Virus record (IMG/VR): IMGVR_UViG_3300020227_000052
Span: 1 to 11,338 of that record
DNA from: a virus
Direction: 5' to 3' (one strand)
DNA length: 11,338 nt
The translations under genes were made by a program, and so were the position numbers. Below the pieces are notes generated by a model, which ran no database searches, was not told the DNA's origin, and saw nothing but the letters and a program-made list of their open reading frames with translations. This document shows positions 1-11,338 of the stretch, in pieces (the first letter of the stretch is position 1; the number at the start of each line of letters is the position of its first letter).

Positions 1-390
1 ACACACTAGAAAATAAATTACCCAGTTCCCCAATAATATAAATATAAAATTAAATAAAATAATAATAAAAGTTGTGGAAAATATAAAATAGAATGAAAAT
101 AATATAGAAAGAAAATATATAATAAAATTAATTAAAATAAATAAATGTAATATGAAAATGGAAATGTAAAATGAAAAGTAATTGGCAGATAAAATAGAAA
201 ATGAGAATAGTTATAAAAATATAAACAATAAACTGCCCTACACTAACTATACAATAAAATTAATAAAATGTAAATAAATATGCAGTAATTGTAGTGGAAT
301 TTATAGAGTAATTAGAGTGTTGACAATTGGAAAATTAAAGTGGAATGAAATTGGAATGAATGTAGGTAAAATCTTTTTTTAAGGGGTATA
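1..390. repeat. Left inverted terminal repeat (ITR-L), 390 bp, non-coding; presumed protein-primed replication origin
   Basis: 1-390 equals the reverse complement of 10949-11338 with no mismatch found in a block-by-block comparison. Identity stops after AAGGGGTATA (381-390): left continues ACTACATT, right-arm complement continues GAGAAGCA. No ORF longer than a few codons. Very AT-rich with internal short repeats. Confidence 0.97.
341..360. repeat. Tandem direct repeat TGGAATGAA-AT-TGGAATGAA inside the ITR (mirrored at 10979-10998)
   Basis: TGGAATGAA occurs at 341-349 and 352-360, an 11-bp period. Related NTGGAA cores occur at 74-79, 158-163, 294-299 and 327-332. Most of the few G residues in the ITR lie in these motifs. 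Confidence 0.6.
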
Positions 391-1434: not shown

Positions 1435-3564
1435 ATGACTTATGACCTAACATCATTGAAAAGACAAAAAGCCTACAAAAAAGACGGTATAGAATACATT
1501 AATATTGAATGTGCTTTTGATATAGAAACAACAAACACCAAGACAGATACACAAGAGCCGATAGCTTTCATGTACGCTTGGTGTCTAGGATTGAGAAATG
1601 AAAATTTCATGTATTACGGTAGAACGTGGGAAGAATTTTTAGAACTTTGCCGAGACCTAAAAGAACACTTCCAACTAAACGAAGAAAGACGTTTAGTCTG
1701 TTACGTTCATAACCTAGCTTTCGAATTTCAGTTTATGCGTAAATATTTTAATTGGACACACATATTTGCACCTGAAAAACGACAGCCATTAGTAGCACTT
1801 AATGACTTCGGTATAGAGTTTAGGGACTCTTACCGATTATCAGGCAGTGATTTAAACACTGTAGCCAATAACTTAGCCTTTCATGATATTGAGAAGTTAA
1901 AAGGGGACTTGGATTATACCCTTACAAGACATCACAACACAGAACTAACAGCTAAAGAATGGGGCTACATTAAACATGATGTTTTAATATTGTTGTATTA
2001 CATTAATGAGCAATTTGCATACTACAATTATAACATAACTAGGGTACCTTTTACTAATACTGGACGTGTAAGAAAATACGTTAGGGATATGTGTTACAAG
2101 GTACAACCTGATGACTTAAATATATTCGGTAAACCTATTAGAAGCTATAACAAATACAACAGCTATAAACGAATTATGAACGTATTACAATTAACAGCTG
2201 AATCATATCAACAATGCAGAAATGCTTTCATGGGCGGATATGTACATGCTAGTGCTAGAAAGCTAGGGCAGACATTAGAGAATGTAACCTCAATTGATAT
2301 TACCTCTTCATATCCTGCCGTAATGGTTAGTGAAAAATTCCCTATGAGTAAACCGTTTAAAGTTGATGTGTCCGACCCTGATTTTAATTTTAGGGATTAC
2401 TTTAACAATACTAACTTAAATCTAGTATTTACAATCAAACTAATAAACCCAATGAACAAATTAGAATACGATTATGAAAGCTATATTTCAGAAAGCAACT
2501 GTGAATATATCTCTAATCCGATAACACACAATGGACGTGTATTCAGTGCTGATGAATTGATTCTAACTATCACTGATGTTGATTTTGATGTAATAGAAAA
2601 AACTTACGAATGGGACGAAATACAGTTTGCTAACATGTATTACTTTTACAATGACTACCTACCTAAACCAATCATAAAATCAATTATGAAGCTATATGAA
2701 GACAAAACACAGCTAAAAGGTATAAAAGGTAAGGAATTAGAATATTATCTAAATAAGAGCATGCTAAACGCAGTGTATGGCATGACAGTCACTGACATAG
2801 TAAAAGATGATGTAGTTTATGATGAAAACTTAGACGATTGGGAACTAGAAGAAGCTAACATAAATGAAAAAATAAACAGATATAATCACGATAAGAACCG
2901 ATTTCTATACTATCCATGGGGGCTTTTTGTATCGGCATACGCAAGAAGGAACCTATGGGACGGAATCGTGAACATTGGAAATGATTATGTTTATTCTGAT
3001 ACTGATTCTATTAAGTTAGAGAATATAGAAAATCATTATGACTTTATCTATTACTACAATAATATGATAACTGAAAAAGTTCAGGCTATGTGTGAACACT
3101 ATAACTTAGACTATCAAAGACTAGCACCCGAAAATATCAATGGGGAAATTAAACCTATAGGCATTTGGGAAGTTGACGGAACTTATTCTAAATTTAAAAC
3201 ACTAGGGGCTAAACGTTATCTAGTAGAACATAAAGACAGTAAAGAATTAGAAATAACACTTTCAGGTTTAAACAAAAAAGACGGTGTGAAATATCTAAAA
3301 CAAGAGTTTGGAACTAACGAAAATGTATTTGAGAACTTTGATAATTATTTATATGTTCCTGATGAGTATTCAGGTAAGCTAGTTCATTACTATATCGAAA
3401 AAGAACAGTTAGCTAACATTACAGATTATCAAGGCAACACAGTAGCAGTAAAAGCACCCTCAGGGCTTCATTTAGAGCCTACACATTTTACTTTAAGTTT
3501 GCCATTAATAGCTAAAGAAATAATAGATAATGCAGAAAAAGGCTATATTATAACGTCATTATAA
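1435..3564 (+). CDS. Protein-primed family-B DNA polymerase (709 aa)
   Basis: SD AAGGAGTGG, ATG at 1435, TAA stop. All motifs are visible: Exo I FDIETT (D29, E31); Exo II HNLAFEF (N93, F96, E97); Exo III YIKHD (Y178, D182); motif A DITSSYP (D288); motif B KSMLNAVYG (K441); motif C YSDTDS (aa 520-525, nt 2992-3009); KxY LGAKRY (K593, Y595). The long A-to-B and B-to-C spacers match the TPR1/TPR2 insertions of protein-primed enzymes. Confidence 0.97.
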   Translation: MTYDLTSLKRQKAYKKDGIEYINIECAFDIETTNTKTDTQEPIAFMYAWCLGLRNENFMYYGRTWEEFLELCRDLKEHFQLNEERRLVCYVHNLAFEFQFMRKYFNWTHIFAPEKRQPLVALNDFGIEFRDSYRLSGSDLNTVANNLAFHDIEKLKGDLDYTLTRHHNTELTAKEWGYIKHDVLILLYYINEQFAYYNYNITRVPFTNTGRVRKYVRDMCYKVQPDDLNIFGKPIRSYNKYNSYKRIMNVLQLTAESYQQCRNAFMGGYVHASARKLGQTLENVTSIDITSSYPAVMVSEKFPMSKPFKVDVSDPDFNFRDYFNNTNLNLVFTIKLINPMNKLEYDYESYISESNCEYISNPITHNGRVFSADELILTITDVDFDVIEKTYEWDEIQFANMYYFYNDYLPKPIIKSIMKLYEDKTQLKGIKGKELEYYLNKSMLNAVYGMTVTDIVKDDVVYDENLDDWELEEANINEKINRYNHDKNRFLYYPWGLFVSAYARRNLWDGIVNIGNDYVYSDTDSIKLENIENHYDFIYYYNNMITEKVQAMCEHYNLDYQRLAPENINGEIKPIGIWEVDGTYSKFKTLGAKRYLVEHKDSKELEITLSGLNKKDGVKYLKQEFGTNENVFENFDNYLYVPDEYSGKLVHYYIEKEQLANITDYQGNTVAVKAPSGLHLEPTHFTLSLPLIAKEIIDNAEKGYIITSL

Positions 3565-3576
3565 AGCCACTGATTT

Positions 3577-3594
3577 GTTTTGCTATATTATATA
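3577..3594 (+). promoter_or_regulatory. Extended -10 promoter of the packaging/portal module (GTTTTGCTATATTATATA)
   Basis: TG at 3581-3582 and -10 TATATT at 3584-3589, with no recognisable -35. The 18-mer is identical to 6952-6969. It lies in the 58-bp gap between the polymerase stop and the ATPase start. Confidence 0.55.
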
Positions 3595-3622
3595 GTGAAG
3601 AAAAATAAAGGTGGTACGAATC

Positions 3623-4717
3623 ATGGCAAAGAATCAAAGATATTATAGCTTAGATAATATTCTATCTGTTAAAGCCCAGTACAATATGGTTATAGGGGAA
3701 CGTTCCAATGGTAAAACGTACGGTACTTTAAAACATGCTATAAATGAGTATTTCAACGGTAACGGTGGACAACTTGCGATAGTTAGACGTTGGCAAGAAG
3801 ATATAAGAGGTAAACGTGCTAGTGATATGTTTTCATCACTTAATCAAGATAACGTTATCTATGAACTATCAAATGGGGCATATGAAGGTATTAAATACTA
3901 TGCAGGTAAATTTTATTTCTGTAACTATGATGAAGACGGAAAGGCTTTATATAATGAATCCGACATATTTGCCCATGCTTTTGCTTTATCAGATACAGAA
4001 CATAATAAATCAATTTCATTCCCTAATATTAAAACGATTCTATTTGATGAGTTTATGACTAGGGGAAGTTATTTACAAGATGAATTTATTCTATTTATGA
4101 ATACAGTATCGACAATCGTTAGACAAAGAAAAGACGTAACTATATTTATGTTAGGTAACACAGTAAACAAATATAGCCCTTACTTTAAAGAAATGGGGCT
4201 TTCACGTGTTCAAGATATGAAACAAGGAACAATTGAAGTTTACACGTACGGTAATAGTGATTTGAAGGTTGCAGTTGAATATACAGCACCTACAAAGAGT
4301 AAGAAGGATAGTAACGTGTACTTTGCTTTTGATAACCCTAAATTGAATATGATTACGAGTGGTAGTTGGGAGTTAGATTTATACCCTCATTTACCAGTTA
4401 AATATAACTACTCAAACATTGAATTTATTTATTTCATTAAGTTTGACGATAATATTTATCAAGCAGAAATTATTCATAAAGACGGGGAAATGTTTACGTT
4501 CATACACGATAAAACAACACCGATTAAGAATGAAGATGATTTAGTTTATTCGTTGGAATACAGTCACAAAATGACACACCAACGAAACATATTAAGACCA
4601 AAAAACAAACTAGAGAGTAATATAAAATACTTCTTTGATATAGACAAGGTATTTTATCAAGATAATTCCGTAGGGGATAGCATAAACAACTACTTAAAAG
4701 TATGTAGTGGAATGTAA
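3623..4717 (+). CDS. DNA encapsidation (packaging) ATPase, phi29 gp16-like (364 aa)
   Basis: SD AAGGTGG at 3608-3614 lies 8 nt before ATG 3623. The ORF-track GTG at 3611 lies inside the SD. Walker A is VIGERSNGKTY and Walker B is KTILFDEFM. The flanking LAIVRRW and LGNTVNKYSPYF match, as I recall them, the gp16 layout (VIGARGIGKS, IYVRRY, IVFDEF, LSNAVSVVNPYF). TAA stop. Confidence 0.92.
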   Translation: MAKNQRYYSLDNILSVKAQYNMVIGERSNGKTYGTLKHAINEYFNGNGGQLAIVRRWQEDIRGKRASDMFSSLNQDNVIYELSNGAYEGIKYYAGKFYFCNYDEDGKALYNESDIFAHAFALSDTEHNKSISFPNIKTILFDEFMTRGSYLQDEFILFMNTVSTIVRQRKDVTIFMLGNTVNKYSPYFKEMGLSRVQDMKQGTIEVYTYGNSDLKVAVEYTAPTKSKKDSNVYFAFDNPKLNMITSGSWELDLYPHLPVKYNYSNIEFIYFIKFDDNIYQAEIIHKDGEMFTFIHDKTTPIKNEDDLVYSLEYSHKMTHQRNILRPKNKLESNIKYFFDIDKVFYQDNSVGDSINNYLKVCSGM

Positions 4718-4734
4718 AGGGGAGTAACAACAGA

Positions 4735-5925
4735 ATGACAAACCAATACGATTGGGGAATTTATAACGGTATTCATGGCATACCTTTCGACAGAACAGAA
4801 AAAGACCGAAACACACGTAACCAAGTCATGTATATGTTAGACCGTAGCTTATTGATGTTTAAATATCATAATCTACCCGAGACACTACCACCAATTGAAC
4901 TTGAAAGACTATTACAAACAAATGGTTTTGCAGGTGTAACCGAAGTGAATGGGGAACTTTACGCTTTCTATGGTGGACTAGGTGGAGAACAGGACGTTTA
5001 CGGAAGACCAACAACAATGGTTATTTCTAATCCAGCTTTAAACTATAACGAAACACTAACAATTGATAGAGACGTAGTTTTAATGCGTAACGATAGTATG
5101 ATGTTAGGTTTAATACCTACATTTGCTAAATACAGTTCAATCATGAATGAGAATGAATTGTCTATGACTTTAGCAAGCATTTCACAACGTGTGAATAATT
5201 TAATTAGTGTTGCTGATGACAACACAGCAGATTCTGCTAAAAAGTATTTGAAACAATTAGAAGAAGGTAAACTAGGTTACATTTTTGAATCTAAGTTATT
5301 TGATTCACTACAAACTAATCCTATGAACAGTTCAGGAGGTTCTAGCATTACTGAACTGATTGAGTTACAGCAATATCTAAAAGCTAGTATGTACAATGAG
5401 ATAGGTTTAAATGCTAACTACAACATGAAACGTGAAAGACTTAACTCTGCTGAAGTCGAAATGAATTCAGACAACCTATATCCGTTAGTAGATAACATGC
5501 TAGAACATAGAAGAATGGCATTAGAACAGATTAATGAAAAATATGGAACTGATATATCTGTAGAGTTTAACTCTAGTTGGGACTATAGAATTAATCAAGG
5601 GGAAAGCATAGACAGTGAGTATTTGGAACAAGCAGATGAACAGAGCCAAGAAGACTTGGGATTCTCTGAACTGGAAGCTAATTCAGATACATTTGAAGAT
5701 GATGAATCAATCGGACAGGAAGAAGAAGCAGAACCAACTGAAACAGTTGAAGAAGCAAGTCAAGAAACTCAAACAGAGCCATTAGATGAACCATTGATAG
5801 AACATAAAGAAGAGTTAGTAGAAGATACTGAACAAAGTGATGAAGAGTTACATTCTAGTTTAGACTTTGAAGAAATTATAGAAGGCTTAGCAAATTTAAA
5901 TAAAGAAAAAGTAAAGGAGCAATAA
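4735..5925 (+). CDS. Portal / upper collar connector, phi29 gp10-like, with an acidic C-terminal extension of about 110 aa (396 aa)
   Basis: SD AAGGGGAG, ATG at 4735, TAA stop. The segments FKYHNLPETLPPIELERLLQTNGFAGV, GGEQDVYGRPT, NEIGLNANYNMKRERLNSAEVEMNSD and EQINEKYGTDISVEF parallel conserved blocks of the phi29 connector as I recall it (WENLPPTINPSFLEK, GQRDVY, LGIKNANLEKKERMVTDEV, KINELYGLNVKVKF). From about aa 288 the sequence is acidic low complexity. Confidence 0.88.
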   Translation: MTNQYDWGIYNGIHGIPFDRTEKDRNTRNQVMYMLDRSLLMFKYHNLPETLPPIELERLLQTNGFAGVTEVNGELYAFYGGLGGEQDVYGRPTTMVISNPALNYNETLTIDRDVVLMRNDSMMLGLIPTFAKYSSIMNENELSMTLASISQRVNNLISVADDNTADSAKKYLKQLEEGKLGYIFESKLFDSLQTNPMNSSGGSSITELIELQQYLKASMYNEIGLNANYNMKRERLNSAEVEMNSDNLYPLVDNMLEHRRMALEQINEKYGTDISVEFNSSWDYRINQGESIDSEYLEQADEQSQEDLGFSELEANSDTFEDDESIGQEEEAEPTETVEEASQETQTEPLDEPLIEHKEELVEDTEQSDEELHSSLDFEEIIEGLANLNKEKVKEQ

Positions 5926-6289: not shown

Positions 6290-6922
6290 ATGATACACAA
6301 TCATAAGCAATTAAAAGTATTCGACTTATACAAAAAAGGTAAGGGATTATTTGAGTATATGAACGATATTCAAGCTTTACCTTTTGAAGAGGTATTGGAT
6401 ATTAAAACTATTGATTTATCCTTCATTACCTTTTACGGTAATAGGGATATTTCTTCCCCTATTGAACACATAGTAGGTGAGGAAGTTACAGATGAAAATA
6501 TGAAACAAATAGCCTCTATGCTATACGGATTGTACTATCAGAAATGGACTAATTTGTATGAGATATATAAAGAAGAGGTAGACCTTGATAGTTATGTTTT
6601 AATCACTGATGAAAATATTCAAGATGATGGAACAGAAGAATCTACAGTTACTTCAAGTAATGATGATACATCTACACACAGTGTTACAGGTTACAATTCT
6701 GATGAGTTTGTAGATTCTGAACAAGACACTAATAAAGGTACAGGCAACACACAGAATGAAGGTAAAAATAACAACCTTAGAGATAGACACCAAGAACAAA
6801 GGGGTAACTTAGGCAACAGACTAGATGACAGACAAAAAGCAATTGACGGATTAAACCAAGACGTTATTCAAGAGGTTGTTTTTAAAGATACTGTACAGCT
6901 AGTAGGTAGCTTAATGTTCTAA
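6290..6922 (+). CDS. Hypothetical protein in the structural module (210 aa); possibly a lower-collar/head-tail adaptor or head decoration protein
   Basis: SD AGGGGGA at 6275-6281 lies 8 nt before ATG 6290. TAA stop. The N-terminal ~100 aa looks globular and the C-terminal half is polar low complexity (S/T/D/N/Q-rich) ending in RGNLGNRLDDRQKAIDGLNQ. I cannot assign a family. Its place between the portal/scaffold and capsid genes is the only functional hint. Confidence 0.55.
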   Translation: MIHNHKQLKVFDLYKKGKGLFEYMNDIQALPFEEVLDIKTIDLSFITFYGNRDISSPIEHIVGEEVTDENMKQIASMLYGLYYQKWTNLYEIYKEEVDLDSYVLITDENIQDDGTEESTVTSSNDDTSTHSVTGYNSDEFVDSEQDTNKGTGNTQNEGKNNNLRDRHQEQRGNLGNRLDDRQKAIDGLNQDVIQEVVFKDTVQLVGSLMF

Positions 6923-7009: not shown

Positions 7010-8209
7010 ATGAGAGTACAACAAATATATGAACTGATGAATAAATCAGTAGGGGAAGTATTAGGTCGAGAAGACGTTTTTAAAGAAGATTTATCAAACG
7101 TAGTAGACGTTGGTAAAGAGATTGTAGACACAGACAACGTAGATAATTACGTAAAGAAATTAGTAAACCACATTGGTAAGGTTATTTTTAACGACCGAGT
7201 TTATAAAGGTAATATTCCAAGCGTAGTTATGGACTCATGGGAATTCGGTTCTATCTTAGAAAAAATTAGTGCAGATATTCCTGAAGCATATGAAAACGAA
7301 TCTTGGCAGTTAGAAGACGGTAAACAATACAAACAAGATATTTTCTATCAACCGAAAGTATCAGCTAAATTCTTCAACAGTAAGGTAACTTTTGAAATTC
7401 CTATTTCATTTACTGAATTACAAGTTAAAGAATCATTCTCTAACCGTGAACAGTTAAACGGATTCTTATCTATGCTATTTAACCAAGTTGAAAATGCTAT
7501 GACTATTAAATTAGATAACCTAGTTATGAAAACTATCAACACTATGACAGCTGACACGTTAGCTGATGAATTAGGAAATGATTTATCTAAATCAGGTGTA
7601 CGTGCTATTAACCTATTAGCTTTATACAATGAGCAAAAAGGAACTAGCCTAACAGCTAAAGAGTCTTATAAAGACCCAGACTTTATTCGATTTGCTTCAT
7701 ACATGATTAGCTTACAAAAAGACCGTATGACTAAGATTTCAACACTATTCAACGGTGGTGGCAAAGAACGATTCACACCAAGTGAAAACTTATCAATCGT
7801 ATTGCTATCAGATTTTGCTAGTTCATCAAATGTATACCTAAATTCAGACGTATTCCATAATGAACTAACTTCATTACCAAACCATGAAACAGTTCCTTAT
7901 TGGCAAGGTTCAGGCAAAAATTATGATTTCGAAGACGTTTCAAAAATTAGTGTTAAAACAGCAAACAACGAAAACGTTACTACATCAGGTATCTTAGGTG
8001 TAATGTTCGACACTCAAGCAGTGGGCGTGGCAAACCTAGATAAACGTGTAACAACTAACTATAACGCAGCTGCTGAATTCTATACAAACTACTACAAAGC
8101 AGATGTAGGCTATTTCGTAGATAATAACGAAAACTATGTTGTTTTCTTTGTAGCAGACGGACAAGAACAAACAGAAACTCAAGCTAAAACTAAAACAGCT
8201 TCTAAATAG
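7010..8209 (+). CDS. Major capsid protein, phi29 gp8-like HK97-fold (399 aa)
   Basis: SD GGGAGTG at 6995-7001 lies 8 nt before ATG 7010. TAG stop. It has its own promoter and a strong terminator, as expected for the most abundant virion protein. The N-terminal VGKEIVDTDNVDNYVKKLVNHIGKVIFNDRVY and C-terminal AAEFYTNYYKADVGYF blocks resemble the gp8 pattern as I recall it. There is no Ig-like C-terminal domain. Confidence 0.85.
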   Translation: MRVQQIYELMNKSVGEVLGREDVFKEDLSNVVDVGKEIVDTDNVDNYVKKLVNHIGKVIFNDRVYKGNIPSVVMDSWEFGSILEKISADIPEAYENESWQLEDGKQYKQDIFYQPKVSAKFFNSKVTFEIPISFTELQVKESFSNREQLNGFLSMLFNQVENAMTIKLDNLVMKTINTMTADTLADELGNDLSKSGVRAINLLALYNEQKGTSLTAKESYKDPDFIRFASYMISLQKDRMTKISTLFNGGGKERFTPSENLSIVLLSDFASSSNVYLNSDVFHNELTSLPNHETVPYWQGSGKNYDFEDVSKISVKTANNENVTTSGILGVMFDTQAVGVANLDKRVTTNYNAAAEFYTNYYKADVGYFVDNNENYVVFFVADGQEQTETQAKTKTASK

Positions 8210-8218
8210 ATAAAGCCG

Positions 8219-8254
8219 AAAGGGTAGGGGACTTAAAGCCCTTACCCTTTTTTT
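8219..8254 (+). terminator. Rho-independent terminator after the capsid gene
   Basis: The stem AAAGGGTA-GGG (8219-8229) pairs with CCC-T-TACCCTTT (8239-8250), giving 12 bp with one bulged T and a 9-nt loop. It is followed by a T-run through 8254 (7 consecutive T from 8248). Confidence 0.85.
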
Positions 8255-8255
8255 A

Positions 8256-8705
8256 ATGCAAGGGGGAACACCATTGGAAATAAGATTATATTATACAAGA
8301 AATGCAAATAACACAATTAACAAAGTATTAGAAAATGAAAGGGTATTTCAAATCAATTTTAAAGATATTGCAGATGAAATAAACCCAACCGTTAAAATCA
8401 AACACAATGAGAAACTAAAAGTAAATTATGCTTATATACCAGACTTTGAAAGATATTATTTTATAACTGATATTGAAGTATATCCAACAGCTATCAATAC
8501 ATTAAGTTTAGAAGTAGACGTATTAGAATCATTCAAAGAAGATATTTTAGAATCTAATGCTACCGTTTCACGTTCTAAATATTCAAATGAATATTTTGAT
8601 GGTGGAGATTACAGAGCTGAAGAACGTAAAGAGCATATCATTTATGAGAGTGATACAGAGGTAGAGTTTGAAAATAACACAATATTGGTAACGATAGGAG
8701 GATAA
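8256..8705 (+). CDS. Tail knob protein, N-terminal-domain fragment (phi29 gp9 N-terminus-like), 149 aa
   Basis: KVNYAYIPDFERYYFITDIEVYPTAINTLSLEVDVLESF parallels the gp9 N-terminal block as I recall it (SYIMFQN..NKWFYAFVTELEF...HFEIDVLQTW). ATG 8256 abuts the terminator T-run and has no SD. The in-frame TTG at 8274 has SD AGGGGGA (8261-8267) 6 nt upstream and may be the real start. TAA stop at 8703-8705. Confidence 0.65.
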   Translation: MQGGTPLEIRLYYTRNANNTINKVLENERVFQINFKDIADEINPTVKIKHNEKLKVNYAYIPDFERYYFITDIEVYPTAINTLSLEVDVLESFKEDILESNATVSRSKYSNEYFDGGDYRAEERKEHIIYESDTEVEFENNTILVTIGG

Positions 8706-8708
8706 CAG

Positions 8709-10703
8709 ATGGGAATATATTGGGCTTTAAAGTTTATTAACGAAGATGACACAGCTACCTTTACGAAAACGACCCATTATATAGAAGAAGGAACAATAGT
8801 TACCGTAACTGCTAATGATGGTTATGTGTTAGATACAATTAAATTAGAAACACCATTCTATACAGAAACAGTACCAAGTTCAGTTGTACAAGGTAAGCAA
8901 GAAGTTGAATTCAATCCAAGAAAATATATCAGAGATACAGCTACAACTAAAAACCTCACAATGACCGTGACTACTTCAGAAGTAGAAGTAGGGCAAGTAG
9001 TAACCTATACGTATGATTTAGATGATGGATTATATTCAAAATTTGATAAAGATGTAGTAGAGAAAACAGATGTTATTGAAATAGGTGCTAAGGATTATTA
9101 CAGGTTTAAAGGTAATATAGAGGTTACATTGAACGATAAAACAAGTAACTACAACCTTGAAGATAACGAACTGTATTTTAGAGATGAAGGTAAAACCTTT
9201 GCTTTACGAATGGAAACTAAGTGGCGTGATGACCTAGAAAGTGTTCATATTAAAGCACGTTCAGAATCATTCGTAGAATATGCTATTCAGTTATCTAATG
9301 CAGTAACTAATTATTATCTGCCAGAGGTACAAGGTAATGAAGAGATTATAGTATCTGCAAAAGAGAACTATGATTTCAGAAATGGTGTGACAGTTGTTTA
9401 TACACGTAACGGTATTAACGAACGAATCAATTACACACCTAAAAACAACCCCGAATATTTCAGTGAAGACAGCATAGACTTTTATTTAAATATAGCTGAT
9501 GTATGGACTGATGACCTACAAAAAATTGAGGTTATAGCTAATGCTGAAGAGATACCACCACCAAAAGAAGCCTCTATAAGACTTGGACTAGAAAATGCTA
9601 CATCTAACATCACAGGTAAGCATATTAAAGAGAATGAAGATTTAGTGCTTACAGCTGATGAAGGCTTTGAGTTTGGTGATTTAATCAAGATAACCATAAC
9701 AAGACAATTAAACGTAGGTACGACACAAACATATCTCCCTAACTCTGCCAGTGATTCCAAGTATTTCAATGATGATAATACAGTATTCACGCTGAATATG
9801 AGTGAGATTTGGGATTATGATACGTATATCATTTTAGTTGAGGCAAGTGCCAAAGAATCATACAAAGGTGATGACGATGAAGACATCACAGACAGTTCTA
9901 CGGACTTTGCTAACATCTATTACGCTGATAGTGGTATCTTATCAAATATAGCCTCTGAACGTTTCTCTAAGGCACAGACAGATGGTTTAGAAGGACAGGG
10001 AGATTTACCGATAGATATGGGAAGTTATATATATCAAGTCTATAAATTCCCTCTGAAGTTCACAGATGATTTAATCAGTGAATCAGAAAGTAAAATAAGA
10101 ATGGGATTCTATCCATTAGAGAGTACAAGTCGTTACATGTTGAGAAGTCGAGTTAAATTCGATTTAGGTACGATTACAGTACCCGAAACATACCACAACA
10201 TTTACGACTATAGAGACACACAGTGCCTATTGCATGTACCGTATGCAGAGCCTATAGAGATTGAACCAACGTACGTTATAGGGCAAATGATAGACCTAGC
10301 CTATTTCTTAGACCTTTACAACGGTAAAGTAACGTTAGAAGTGTATTCCGATAAAATAGAAGGTGGATTAGTTCAACGTGAAGAAGTACCCGTTGTATTC
10401 GATATACCGTTCATGCAACCAGAGTACAATAGCGTAGTGAATAAGGTCGGGGGCTATATCAATAACAAGGTTAAAACACCTTACATTGAAGTAGTTAGAA
10501 ACATTCCATATGACCCTAGCACTATATTTGGTAAAGAAGGCAAAGAGTATGACAAGCTAAAAGAGTTTGAAGGTTATGTAGAAGTAGCAGACCTAGACTT
10601 ATCTACCAATGCAAAACGTGAAGAACAAGAACAAATAGAATCATTATTAAGTCAAGGCGTAATCATTAATAAACCACAAGAAAAAACTATAATTACTGAA
10701 TAA
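8709..10703 (+). CDS. Tail knob / receptor-binding tail protein: four tandem ~95-aa repeat domains plus a gp9-like C-terminal region (664 aa)
   Basis: SD AGGAGGA at 8696-8702 lies 6 nt before ATG 8709. TAA stop. It is in the same frame as 8256-8705, separated only by TAA-CAG. Residues ~5-383 form four repeats. The C-terminal end EGYVEVADLDLSTNAKREEQEQIESLLSQGVII resembles the gp9 C-terminal pattern as I recall it ([33 protein letters not shown]). Confidence 0.65.
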   Translation: MGIYWALKFINEDDTATFTKTTHYIEEGTIVTVTANDGYVLDTIKLETPFYTETVPSSVVQGKQEVEFNPRKYIRDTATTKNLTMTVTTSEVEVGQVVTYTYDLDDGLYSKFDKDVVEKTDVIEIGAKDYYRFKGNIEVTLNDKTSNYNLEDNELYFRDEGKTFALRMETKWRDDLESVHIKARSESFVEYAIQLSNAVTNYYLPEVQGNEEIIVSAKENYDFRNGVTVVYTRNGINERINYTPKNNPEYFSEDSIDFYLNIADVWTDDLQKIEVIANAEEIPPPKEASIRLGLENATSNITGKHIKENEDLVLTADEGFEFGDLIKITITRQLNVGTTQTYLPNSASDSKYFNDDNTVFTLNMSEIWDYDTYIILVEASAKESYKGDDDEDITDSSTDFANIYYADSGILSNIASERFSKAQTDGLEGQGDLPIDMGSYIYQVYKFPLKFTDDLISESESKIRMGFYPLESTSRYMLRSRVKFDLGTITVPETYHNIYDYRDTQCLLHVPYAEPIEIEPTYVIGQMIDLAYFLDLYNGKVTLEVYSDKIEGGLVQREEVPVVFDIPFMQPEYNSVVNKVGGYINNKVKTPYIEVVRNIPYDPSTIFGKEGKEYDKLKEFEGYVEVADLDLSTNAKREEQEQIESLLSQGVIINKPQEKTIITE

Positions 10704-10715
10704 CTTAATTTGATT

Positions 10716-10743
10716 TTGTAAAACTGTATAAATATGTTATATT
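10716..10743 (+). promoter_or_regulatory. Orphan sigma-A-type promoter downstream of the last gene (TTGTAA - 16 nt - TGtTATATT)
   Basis: -35 TTGTAA at 10716-10721, a 16-nt spacer with TG at 10735-10736, and -10 TATATT at 10738-10743. It shares TATATTATATA with the 3584 and 6959 promoters. No ORF follows. Confidence 0.55.
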
Positions 10744-10749
10744 ATATAT

Positions 10750-10835
10750 AGGTCAAGAAGTTATTCACTTCTTTTATGTTTTAAAATTTTATTTTTCATT
10801 TCCTAAGACTAGGTACCGCCACCTAGTCTTTTTTT
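10750..10835 (+). ncRNA. Candidate small non-coding RNA of about 85 nt (promoter-to-terminator unit without an ORF)
   Basis: The predicted start is near 10750. Hairpin 1 is AAGAAGT/ACTTCTT (10755-10761 pairs with 10767-10773, 5-nt loop). A U/A-rich linker contains the self-complementary TTTTAAAATTTT (10779-10790). Hairpin 2 is the terminator at 10805-10835. The longest ORF inside is 2 codons. Confidence 0.35.
10805..10835 (+). terminator. Rho-independent terminator at the end of the late region
   Basis: A perfect 10-bp stem AAGACTAGGT (10805-10814) pairs with ACCTAGTCTT (10821-10830) around the 6-nt loop ACCGCC. The T-run at 10829-10835 has 7 T. Confidence 0.88.
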
Positions 10836-10948
10836 ATATCTTCCATCACAACCCCACTCATCCTTTTAATATAAGCAAAGAAAAGAATTTAGGTATTAAC
10901 TATCCTATTTACTATTTAATCCTACAGAATAACTCACAGTTGCTTCTC

Positions 10949-11338
10949 TATACCCCTTAAAAAAAGATTTTACCTACATTCATTCCAATTTCATTCCACT
11001 TTAATTTTCCAATTGTCAACACTCTAATTACTCTATAAATTCCACTACAATTACTGCATATTTATTTACATTTTATTAATTTTATTGTATAGTTAGTGTA
11101 GGGCAGTTTATTGTTTATATTTTTATAACTATTCTCATTTTCTATTTTATCTGCCAATTACTTTTCATTTTACATTTCCATTTTCATATTACATTTATTT
11201 ATTTTAATTAATTTTATTATATATTTTCTTTCTATATTATTTTCATTCTATTTTATATTTTCCACAACTTTTATTATTATTTTATTTAATTTTATATTTA
11301 TATTATTGGGGAACTGGGTAATTTATTTTCTAGTGTGT
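10949..11338. repeat. Right inverted terminal repeat (ITR-R), 390 bp
   Basis: Exact reverse complement of 1-390, ending ...CTAGTGTGT-3'. Confidence 0.97.

Follow-up and report, generated by a model that had tools for sequence, protein, structure and literature searches.

The window (the whole stretch of DNA analysed, 11,338 bp) contains, directly downstream of its major capsid gene, two open reading frames (ORFs) that together resemble the single tail knob gene of φ29 and are separated by one stop codon. The question is whether this is an interrupted gene, a gene whose stop is read through, or a pair of genes. The two ORFs very probably represent two genuine, separate genes encoding a split φ29-type tail knob, an arrangement that is standard in Astrithrvirus-like phages of ~10-13 kb. 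The central fact, a knob made from two genes, has been published before (Evseev et al. 2024; Pourcel et al. 2024); what the window contributes is one more complete genome, 11.3 kb long, divergent and low in GC, for the two-chain φ29-knob group.

The window spans an entire φ29-like genome and carries terminal inverted repeats of 390 bp. Its Pfam and PHROG matches are DNA_pol_B_2, Podovirus_Gp16, Phage_connector and Phi29_MCP, and its plan, with a protein-primed polymerase B, a gp16-type ATPase and a connector, fits the Astrithrvirus type (group size ~11-14 kb). Its relatives are phages of that type, namely astrithr, Phanie and DU_PP_III. An Rfam search of the whole window gave zero matches, the φ29-type pRNA included, and no lysis gene is recognizable in the genome. 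The landmarks around the knob locus are as follows.

4735-5925: connector gene.
6290-6922: probably the short lower collar gene, a candidate placed by synteny with published maps.
7010-8209: major capsid gene (Phi29_MCP), directly 5' of the first knob gene.
8218-8255, plus strand: hairpin with a T-run, resembling an intrinsic terminator, separating the major capsid gene from the first knob gene.
10805-10840, plus strand: terminator-like hairpin with a T-run at the end of the late operon, found by pattern scan.

The hairpin at 8218-8255 (RNA fold -20.5 kcal/mol, z = -3.7) keeps its stem and T-run in all five close relatives compared and may act as a terminator.

The junction between the two ORFs reads ...ACG ATA GGA GGA TAA CAG ATG GGA.... 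As a preliminary description of this DNA had stated, the ORFs share one frame (8709 minus 8256 is 453) and are parted only by the TAA and one CAG codon, and an AGGAGGA precedes the second ATG; the sequence bears out both points, the motif lying ~7 nt 5' of that ATG. The features of the locus are these.

8259-8267, plus strand: AAGGGGGAA, a Shine-Dalgarno (SD)-like sequence for the short gene.
8274-8705, plus strand: knob N-part gene, starting at TTG 8274 (143 aa), with a tube-fold domain equivalent to φ29 gp9 residues about 1-150.
8696-8702, plus strand: AGGAGGA, coding for the conserved Gly-Gly with which the N-part ends, and also the likely ribosome-binding site of the long gene.
8703-8705, plus strand: TAA, the genuine stop of the N-part gene.
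8709-10703, plus strand: long knob gene, 664 aa, with β-sandwich domains ahead of the conserved knob C-part.

The short ORF had been drawn from an ATG at 8256 (8256-8705, 149 aa). Its stop and frame stand, but its start does not: ATG 8256 has no ribosome-binding site and is absent as a conserved start in the four closest relatives, whereas TTG 8274 is conserved (as ATG in relative L070), follows AAGGGGG or AGGAGG in the relatives, and gives the 143 aa that is the length of nearly all close homologues. The short gene is thus most likely 8274-8705. The AAGGGG / AGGAGG motif is kept 5' of this TTG/ATG in the relatives, and the frame relation to the long gene is the same from either start.

The split of the knob into two genes is conserved in the group. 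Among the 80 loci having both genes, the halves are adjacent in 76, with a gap mostly of -1 to +4 nt; in the remaining four (L050, L053, L081 and L090) they are neighbours in swapped order. Of the 76 adjacent loci, 74 have an SD-like motif 5' of the long-gene start, and in 34 the N-part ends in GG. The N-part gene of every relative whose halves adjoin is closed by a stop (TAA in 51, TGA in 17, TAG in 8), which has no conserved context. Homologues of the short protein (n = 63) are stand-alone in every case, with lengths of 115-170 aa and the same ...TIGG motif at the end. The cultured phages astrithr, Phanie and DU_PP_III likewise carry, after the capsid gene, a ~146-aa gene followed at once by a long gene; in astrithr, too, the pair is in frame (TAA ATG).

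Assignment of the pair to the knob depends on likeness to φ29 gp9. When searched directly against Pfam, PHROG and PDB sequences, neither protein gave a significant match. For the short product, identified in the preliminary description as a gp9-type knob N-terminal domain, the profile, Foldseek and hhalign comparisons all agree with that identification. The two top PDB sequences for the N-part family profile were the C1 gp12 knob (4eo2, E 0.014) and φ29 gp9 (5fb4, E 0.065), and hhalign against the gp9 family gave E 0.002. A Foldseek search of the N-part AF2 model against the PDB matched gp9 (5fb4/5fb5/5fei) at E 5e-3 to 1e-2 with prob 1.0, and 4eo2 and 8egs as well; the best match was the SaPI1 neck protein 9mu3_C, which has a tube fold, and stopper and tail-terminator proteins were also found. 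Pfam Caud_tail_N is the commonest sub-threshold match in the N-part family (E 0.26 for the window, 0.0041 for the best member). The motif YYFI...LEVDVLESFK of the window N-part corresponds to YAFV...FEIDVLQTW of φ29. Structures of gp9 are PDB 5FB4, 5FB5 and 5FEI, and homologous knobs are those of phages C1 (4EO2) and Andhra (8EGS).

The end of the long product had likewise been compared to the gp9 C-terminus, and a weak sequence likeness is present there. Over its last 53-72 aa the C-part can be aligned to residues 506/527-583 of gp9 (hhalign E 1e-4 to 3e-4; reversed control 0.07-0.36), and the C-terminal helix-strand motif ...EEQEQIESLLSQGVII has a φ29 counterpart. Taken over all of these alignments, which span the last 53-72 aa only, E ranges from 1e-4 to 5e-3. 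The C-part alignment by itself matched the gp9 family over the last 32 aa only (E 0.13), and the likeness rose only after the N- and C-part alignments had been concatenated on a naturally fused protein, described below. In a global hhalign comparison the concatenated family is collinear with that of gp9 (Prob 94, E 1.8e-8; reversed control 0.35). Reversed-sequence controls were run because the best local score is partly that of a low-complexity loop; the strongest local hhalign score leans partly on this loop, found in the fused protein only, and its own reversed control reached 0.03. The C-part profile found no match among PDB sequences, PF20934 did not turn up when 62 C-part proteins were scanned with Pfam, and gp9 was absent from the top 50 Foldseek matches of the full 664-aa model against the PDB and BFVD, where matches to tandem Ig-like domains may have hidden it.

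The fused protein is that of the metagenomic relative L055 (IMGVR_UViG_3300021387_002333, ORF 3752-5371, 539 aa), in which an N-part module (E 1e-24) and a C-part module of the window family (two collinear matches, i-E about 1e-10) form a single-chain knob. This ORF was scored with HMMER --nobias, since the HMMER bias filter drops it. Unlike the window pair, it has no Ig-like domains, and at the position of the gp9 loop it carries a ~55-aa hydrophobic, Gly/Ala-rich loop (aa 410-465).

In gp9 (~600 aa) the order of the modules is the same as in the window and the knob gene also adjoins the capsid gene, but in the window the knob comprises two polypeptides parted by a conserved stop, ~385 aa of Ig-like domains occur at the break, and the Pfam models PF16838 Caud_tail_N and PF20934 are not reached at their thresholds. 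The window C-part also lacks the long hydrophobic membrane-penetrating loop of gp9 (residues 417-491), with only a short polar segment (aa about 570-592) at that position; because of this, the window knob may not work exactly like that of φ29.

The long protein, by its AF2 model (mean pLDDT 88.7), consists of four β-sandwich domains and the C-module, and its close homologues are 664-677 aa long.

8709-8993, plus strand: domain D1 (aa 1-95), a β-sandwich by AF2 secondary structure.
8994-9860, plus strand: domains D2-D4 (aa 96-384), three tandem β-sandwich (Ig/FN3-like) copies of ~95 aa each.
9906-10700, plus strand: conserved C-terminal module of the knob C-part (aa 400-664, 265 aa).

D1 is probably InlB-B-repeat-like, on the basis of Flg_new_2 / bacterial-repeat matches in members of the long-protein family and in BFVD. 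D2-D4 are related to one another in pairwise BLASTP (D2/D3 E 1e-8, D3/D4 E 1e-11) and make up a candidate host- or helper-binding module; tandem Ig/FN3/CCP arrays dominate the Foldseek matches of the long model in the PDB. All four β-sandwich domains are probably lateral modules for adhesion or docking. The C-module is widespread: its profile finds 1,323 cluster representatives at E<=1e-3, and in the 150 best listed of these it is always C-terminal, in proteins of 202-1,487 aa. The preliminary description would have been wrong about the knob had the short protein proved unrelated to gp9 N-termini or had the long protein held a whole knob; the short protein is related to them, and the N-part profile finds its domain in 0 of 160 C-module proteins, a set that includes the closest homologues of the 664-aa protein.

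A split knob had been regarded as unusual for this tail component, whereas it is the rule for the clade, as Evseev et al. 2024 (PMC11476376) already report. That paper, citing Pourcel et al. 2024, describes the two-gene knob with AlphaFold3 models of 6+6 chains, those of Astrid and DU_PP_III having ipTM 0.51-0.69. Known examples are gp09+gp10 of Salmonella astrithr/Astrid, gp9+gp10 of the Acinetobacter satellite Aci01-2-Phanie, and the Pectobacterium phage DU_PP_III (PMC11476376; Pourcel et al. 2024, J Virol 98:e00667-24). Genome plan, genome size and the site of the knob directly after the Phi29_MCP gene are the same in astrithr, Phanie, DU_PP_III and the window. The window N-part is 29-32% identical to astrithr gp09, Phanie gp9 and the DU_PP_III protein (E 1e-9 to 1e-13), and in tblastn it matches all three over 95-97% of its length at E 1e-12 to 1e-13. 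The C-module is 27-34% identical to Astrithrvirus-like long proteins, with E down to 1e-28; tblastn matches of the long protein to astrithr gp10, Entb_47 and Phanie gp10 cover the C-terminal 230-350 aa (aa 402-653 among the queries). The best BFVD structural matches of the window's long protein include its counterpart in Salmonella phage Astrid. Both the window and the Astrithrvirus-like phages have Ig-like domains ahead of the C-module and a tight, SD-coupled junction. The window differs in that its sequence is just ~30% identical to theirs, its long protein includes a tandem array of three among its four β-sandwich domains, its GC is 32% with strong SD sites and 390-bp ITRs, and no lysin gene follows the knob genes.

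Of the readings offered in the preliminary description, a truly split knob with co-assembling halves is the best explanation, given the conserved split and the gp9-like N-part. In such a knob the 143-aa N-part would supply a tube-fold domain homologous to the N-terminal ~150 residues of gp9, and the 664-aa protein would supply the four β-sandwich domains and a 265-aa module homologous to the knob C-terminal part. GGA GGA, the last codons of the first gene, would double as ribosome-binding site for the second, whose ATG follows 7 nt later. The long gene may thus be translationally coupled to the short one through AGGAGGA, and such coupling would favour equimolar synthesis of both knob proteins. 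We infer that six copies of each would co-assemble as the knob at the distal end of the tail, beneath both the connector and the short lower collar. The C-terminal third of the N-part, which is disordered in the monomer model (aa 105-149), could fold against the C-part. The TAA is an ordinary stop, and there is no need for a fusion protein.

It could instead be that the two proteins are independent tail parts, the 143-aa protein being a ring resembling tube, adaptor or stopper proteins and the long one a fibre or receptor-binding protein anchored by its C-terminus, so that the two-gene state is ancestral and gp9 arose by fusion. The SaPI1 neck, stopper and tail-terminator matches of the short protein fit this, as do the wide spread of the split form (the 1,323 clusters), the high variability of the N-terminal modules, and two loci (L050 and L057) in which the halves are reordered or joined to other modules. 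However, gp9 and the fused L055 protein both have the two modules in collinear order, the genes are tightly coupled neighbours in 76 of 80 loci and neighbours in reverse order in the others, and Pfam and PHROG reveal no other distal-tail candidate in these genomes. Published AF3 models (PMC11476376) have β-sheets common to the two chains. Independent parts are therefore improbable. The difference from a split knob is mainly one of evolutionary direction and wording.

Low-level read-through of the TAA at 8703, the second reading in the preliminary description, would give a minor fusion of ~93 kDa (N-part-Gln-long protein), functional in the virion beside the separate proteins. One stop and one sense codon between in-frame ORFs, in the window and in its relative L069, would allow it, and the natural fusion in L055 suggests that such a chain is structurally tolerable. 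However, the frame relation in the 76 loci is 0 in 18, +1 in 31 and +2 in 27, so that in-frame pairs are not enriched over the ~25 expected by chance, and just 14 loci combine a common frame with a single stop. Even close relatives have lost the relation: L065 (83% identical) and L068 (76%) have 4-nt spacers, and L070 (86%) has two stops in tandem, TAG TAG. The swapped order in four loci, the change among TAA, TGA and TAG, and the mere 3 nt from stop to next start also argue against read-through, and the fused chain, unlike that of L055, would have its halves parted by four Ig-like domains. TAA is moreover the least leaky of the bacterial stop codons. Read-through is thus very unlikely. The idea that one real gene has been broken by a recent nonsense mutation, or by an error of sequencing or assembly, has the in-frame geometry in its favour and nothing else, and its probability is negligible: the junction is identical in L069, a 98% identical relative from an independent sample, the 63 short homologues all stand alone, cultured phages carry the same two genes, and the second gene owns an SD and an ATG. 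Read-through, nonsense mutation and sequencing error are rejected, then, because the split is conserved, the frame is unconstrained, close relatives are frame-shifted or double-stopped, and the order is reversed in four loci. The common frame across the TAA is a coincidence, neither read-through nor error.

For annotation, the two should be called as separate genes, a knob N-part and a knob C-part with Ig-like domains, without merging, a pseudogene flag or a read-through label. In the wider survey the two-chain knob is very common in metagenomes, and its break point tolerates fusion, reordering and module swapping, which is useful background on how minimal podophage tails gain host-binding or helper-binding modules.

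The literature proposes a Gram-negative host as the context of the split knob, and the described members infect Gram-negative bacteria. In the window genome, the GC of 32% and the strong SD sites suggest Bacillota-like translation signals. Its nearest relatives occur in MAG bins from gut or rumen that carry the label Bacilli or Clostridia, and relatives also occur in Bacteroides and other bins, binning of 11-kb phage contigs being unreliable. It is conceivable, though unlikely, that the phage is a helper-dependent satellite like Acinetobacter phage Phanie in a low-GC, possibly Gram-positive gut host, with its four lateral Ig-like domains docking onto the tail of a helper phage instead of the host cell. 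In that case a very large group of gut phages (>1,300 protein clusters) would use the split knob as a general adaptor design, and it would not be an adaptation to Gram-negative hosts.

The window, a complete linear genome, has a φ29 gene set and perfect inverted terminal repeats of 390 bp, which exceed the 219 bp annotated for Pectobacterium phage DU_PP_III. Its ends start with ACACAC; short terminal reiterations of this type serve for sliding-back when replication is protein-primed.

Features of the window
1-390 and 10949-11338, inverted terminal repeats
1435-3564, DNA_pol_B_2 polymerase
3611-4717, gp16-type packaging ATPase
4735-5925, connector
7010-8209, Phi29_MCP capsid protein
8218-8255, hairpin and T-run
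8274-8705, short knob gene (most likely extent)
8709-10703, long knob gene, 664 aa
9906-10700, conserved C-terminal module of the long protein (C-module)

The preliminary description held that a tail-knob gene is split by a single TAA into ORFs 8256-8705 and 8709-10703, and on reading the window sequence its account of the junction is accurate. The ORFs share one frame, only TAA (8703-8705) and one CAG codon lie between them (...ACG ATA GGA GGA TAA CAG ATG GGA...), and AGGAGGA at 8696-8702 is placed about 7 nt 5' of ATG 8709. The frame and stop of the short ORF stand, but its start does not. ATG 8256 lies directly on the T-run of the hairpin and, in an alignment with the four closest relatives, is replaced by ATA or AGA, whereas TTG 8274 is kept (ATG in one relative, L070) with AAGGGGG or AGGAGG upstream. 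Nearly all close homologues of the short protein are 143 aa long, with the N-terminus MEIRLYY, and the short gene is thus most likely 8274-8705. The hairpin between the capsid gene and this first knob gene (-20.5 kcal/mol, z = -3.7) was not picked up by a simple terminator scan; it is kept with its T-run in five of five close relatives, and is probably an attenuating terminator setting the capsid-to-tail expression ratio.

Single-sequence searches with the short protein gave no match. A profile of 46 family members, compared with 177,635 PDB sequences, matched best the phage C1 knob gp12 (4eo2, E 0.014, residues 43-145) and second best the φ29 tail knob protein gp9 (5fb4, E 0.065, residues 91-133), and the family motif NYAYIP.F.RYYFI...LEVDVLESFKEDI resembles SYIMFQN...WFYAFV...FEIDVLQTWMFDI of φ29. 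In an AF2 model, residues 1-104 are confident and 105-149 disordered; Foldseek with this model recovers φ29 gp9 crystal structures (E 5e-3 to 1e-2, probability 1.0, about 115 columns), as well as knobs from C1 and Andhra and neck proteins with a tube fold. Alignment of the short-protein family with the gp9 family by hhalign gives E 0.002, and the Pfam family most often matched among members, below threshold, is Caud_tail_N. The agreement of profile, motif, structure model, hhalign and Pfam establishes the proposed homology of the short product (hereafter the N-part) to the gp9 N-terminal domain.

The long protein is modelled confidently by AF2 (mean pLDDT 88.7) as four β-sandwich domains (aa 1-95, 96-188, 189-284 and 285-384), a linker and then the C-terminal module (aa ~400-664). 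The last three sandwiches are tandem repeats (pairwise E 1e-8 to 1e-11). Foldseek of the model against the PDB returns tandem Ig/FN3/CCP arrays, and among the best BFVD matches are Salmonella phage Astrid's long knob protein and uncharacterised, unnamed podophage proteins. At E<=1e-3, exhaustive HMMER searching with the C-module yielded 1,323 cluster representatives (50% identity), a family size that implies a large, mostly uncultured mini-podophage group in gut and rumen samples. The best 150 of these all carry the module at the C-terminus, their lengths being 202-1,487 aa; it is thus a conserved anchor, and the extension N-terminal to it varies greatly. An N-part domain is absent from all of 160 C-module proteins, even at E<=10; this set includes the closest homologues of the 664-aa protein (P0064-P0074), the 664-aa protein itself not being scored separately. 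On this evidence and that of the AF2 model, the long protein alone does not make up a full knob.

The link of the C-module to gp9 is weaker than that of the N-part. A C-part profile found no match among PDB sequences, Pfam PF20934 does not match the C-part, and gp9 is not listed by Foldseek for the whole long-protein model against PDB or BFVD. The single-chain knob of a related locus, L055 (IMGVR_UViG_3300021387_002333), naturally connects the split family with φ29 gp9. Its ORF 3752-5371 (539 aa) joins an N-part module (residues 1-152, E 1e-24) to a collinear C-module (residues 244-410 and 465-538, i-E ~1e-10), the two C-module matches being separated by 55 aa of Gly/Ala-rich hydrophobic sequence, which coincides in position with the gp9 membrane-active loop. 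A concatenated N-part and C-part family alignment built on this protein was compared with the gp9 family by hhalign, with reversed controls.

Matches of the concatenated knob family to the gp9 family
Whole family, global: 1-539 to gp9 9-583, E 1.8e-8 (Prob 94); reversed 0.35
Best local match: 392-539 to gp9 425-583, E 3e-6; reversed 0.03, the low-complexity loop supplying part of the score
C-terminal tail alone, 53-72 aa: to gp9 506/527-583, E 1e-4 to 3e-4; reversed 0.07-0.36

The tail carries the motif GY.EV..I.L....A...E...I..LL..GV.I, and the middle of the C-module has no detectable sequence similarity to gp9. Taken with the HHpred and AlphaFold evidence on Phanie and Astrid in Evseev et al. 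2024 (PMC11476376), these alignments make the suggested correspondence of the C-part to the C-terminal part of gp9 probable. Unlike φ29 gp9, the window C-part lacks the long hydrophobic loop, so membrane penetration may differ or depend on something else.

When both proteins were compared with 50,697 phage records by tblastn, only ~11-kb phages in or near Astrithrvirus were matched, at about 30% identity (Salmonella astrithr, Astrid and assan, Acinetobacter Phanie, Pectobacterium DU_PP_III, Enterobacter Entb_47 and Shigella vB_SHGBLB0004). In three annotated maps the capsid gene is followed by a gene for ~146 aa and then directly by the long gene.

Knob genes in annotated maps
astrithr: gp09, 7500-7940; gp10, 7941-9647
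Phanie: 7353-7796 ('putative tail knob protein'); 7796-10360
DU_PP_III: 7440-7877, then an ORF without annotation

In the knob sections of Evseev et al. 2024 (PMC11476376), one protein is likened to the N-terminal portion of p9 and its partner to the C-terminal portion, with Ig-like domains inserted in the two-protein knob, which is probably a hexamer of two-protein units. A genuinely split knob is supported by the gp9-like N-part, the probable gp9-like C-part and the conserved two-gene layout. It had been considered unusual, but is instead ordinary for the clade; going by those sections, the window knob is a divergent addition to an arrangement already described.

Two other readings had been offered, namely read-through of the TAA and a recent nonsense mutation or sequencing error.

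Junctions in close relatives (amino-acid identity)
L069, 98%: TAA CAG ATG, in frame, one stop
L070, 86%: TAG TAG CAC ATG, in frame, two stops
L065, 83%: TAA ACGA ATG, +1
L068, 76%: TAG TTGA TTG, +1

Across 76 loci with adjacent genes, drawn from IMG/VR, GTDB genomes, Logan/ENA contigs and cultured phages, the frame relation is 0 in 18, +1 in 31 and +2 in 27, and just 14 combine frame 0 with a single stop, where chance would place one third in frame. Most gaps measure -1 to +4 nt. In 74 of the 76 loci the second gene has an SD-like motif ahead of its start, and in 34 that SD is the GGAGG or GGGGG encoding a Gly-Gly at the C-terminus of the short protein. Tight coupling, as far as these sequences indicate, is conserved and frame is not. 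The order is reversed in four loci (L050, 2439-4453; L090, 2340-4471; L053; L081), the long gene preceding the short one with a 4-nt ATGA overlap. In L057 and L062 the N-part forms the C-terminus of a ~570-580-aa protein, behind an uncharacterised ~410-aa module, and a short C-part protein of ~345-360 aa comes next (2675-4387 and 4391-5425 in L057), so the variable module can be attached to either knob half. Selected read-through is rejected, being left without support by the spread of frames, the varied stops and spacers and the reversed orders. Mutation or error is excluded by this survey, by the identical junction of L069, which comes from an independent sample, and by the lengths of the short protein's database homologues (115-170 aa in 63 of 63).

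For the split knob, the following model may apply. The late operon would cross the conserved hairpin and T-run 3' of the capsid gene, probably lowering tail-gene transcription relative to capsid. Ribosomes ending the N-part gene would sit on the long-gene SD and re-initiate 3 nt downstream, and this coupling would yield near-equimolar N-part and long protein. By analogy with gp9 structures and the AF3 models in the knob sections of PMC11476376, six N-parts would form a proximal tube ring below a short lower collar and six C-parts would make up the rest of the knob, the disordered N-part tail (aa 105-149) would fold against the C-part, and the Ig-like domains would project sideways.

A φ29-type packaging pRNA is not detectable in the window despite the gp16-type ATPase and connector, there being no Rfam match at E<=1 in the whole stretch. 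No endolysin or holin gene is recognisable in the genome, and no ORF of at least 40 aa lies 3' of the long knob gene on either strand (10704-11338); in astrithr, Phanie and DU_PP_III the knob genes are followed by a lysin gene. The L065 and L068 contigs (10.7-11.1 kb) likewise stop just past the long gene. This absence may reflect an unrecognised lysis function, or helper dependence as in Phanie, a satellite needing a helper myophage tail according to a statement in PMC11476376 citing Pourcel et al. 2024.

The survey makes minor additions to the published picture: no constraint on frame, a very large family, and the existence of fused, reordered and differently fused variants. A further one is this low-GC member with strong SD sites, which may have a host other than a Gram-negative bacterium. 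Host clues for its relatives come from MAG bins only. Astrithrvirus-like contigs also occur in two actinobacterial isolate assemblies from one culture collection, Herbiconiux daphne CPCC 203386 (L078, L085 and L087) and Modestobacter versicolor CPCC 205246 (L080); laboratory or sequencing contamination is more likely here than a true host link. At 493-759 of the window, the product of ~85 aa has no significant family match and resembles a small helix-turn-helix regulator; its listed GTG start is probably wrong, and ATG 502, behind GAGGAG (488-493), fits better.
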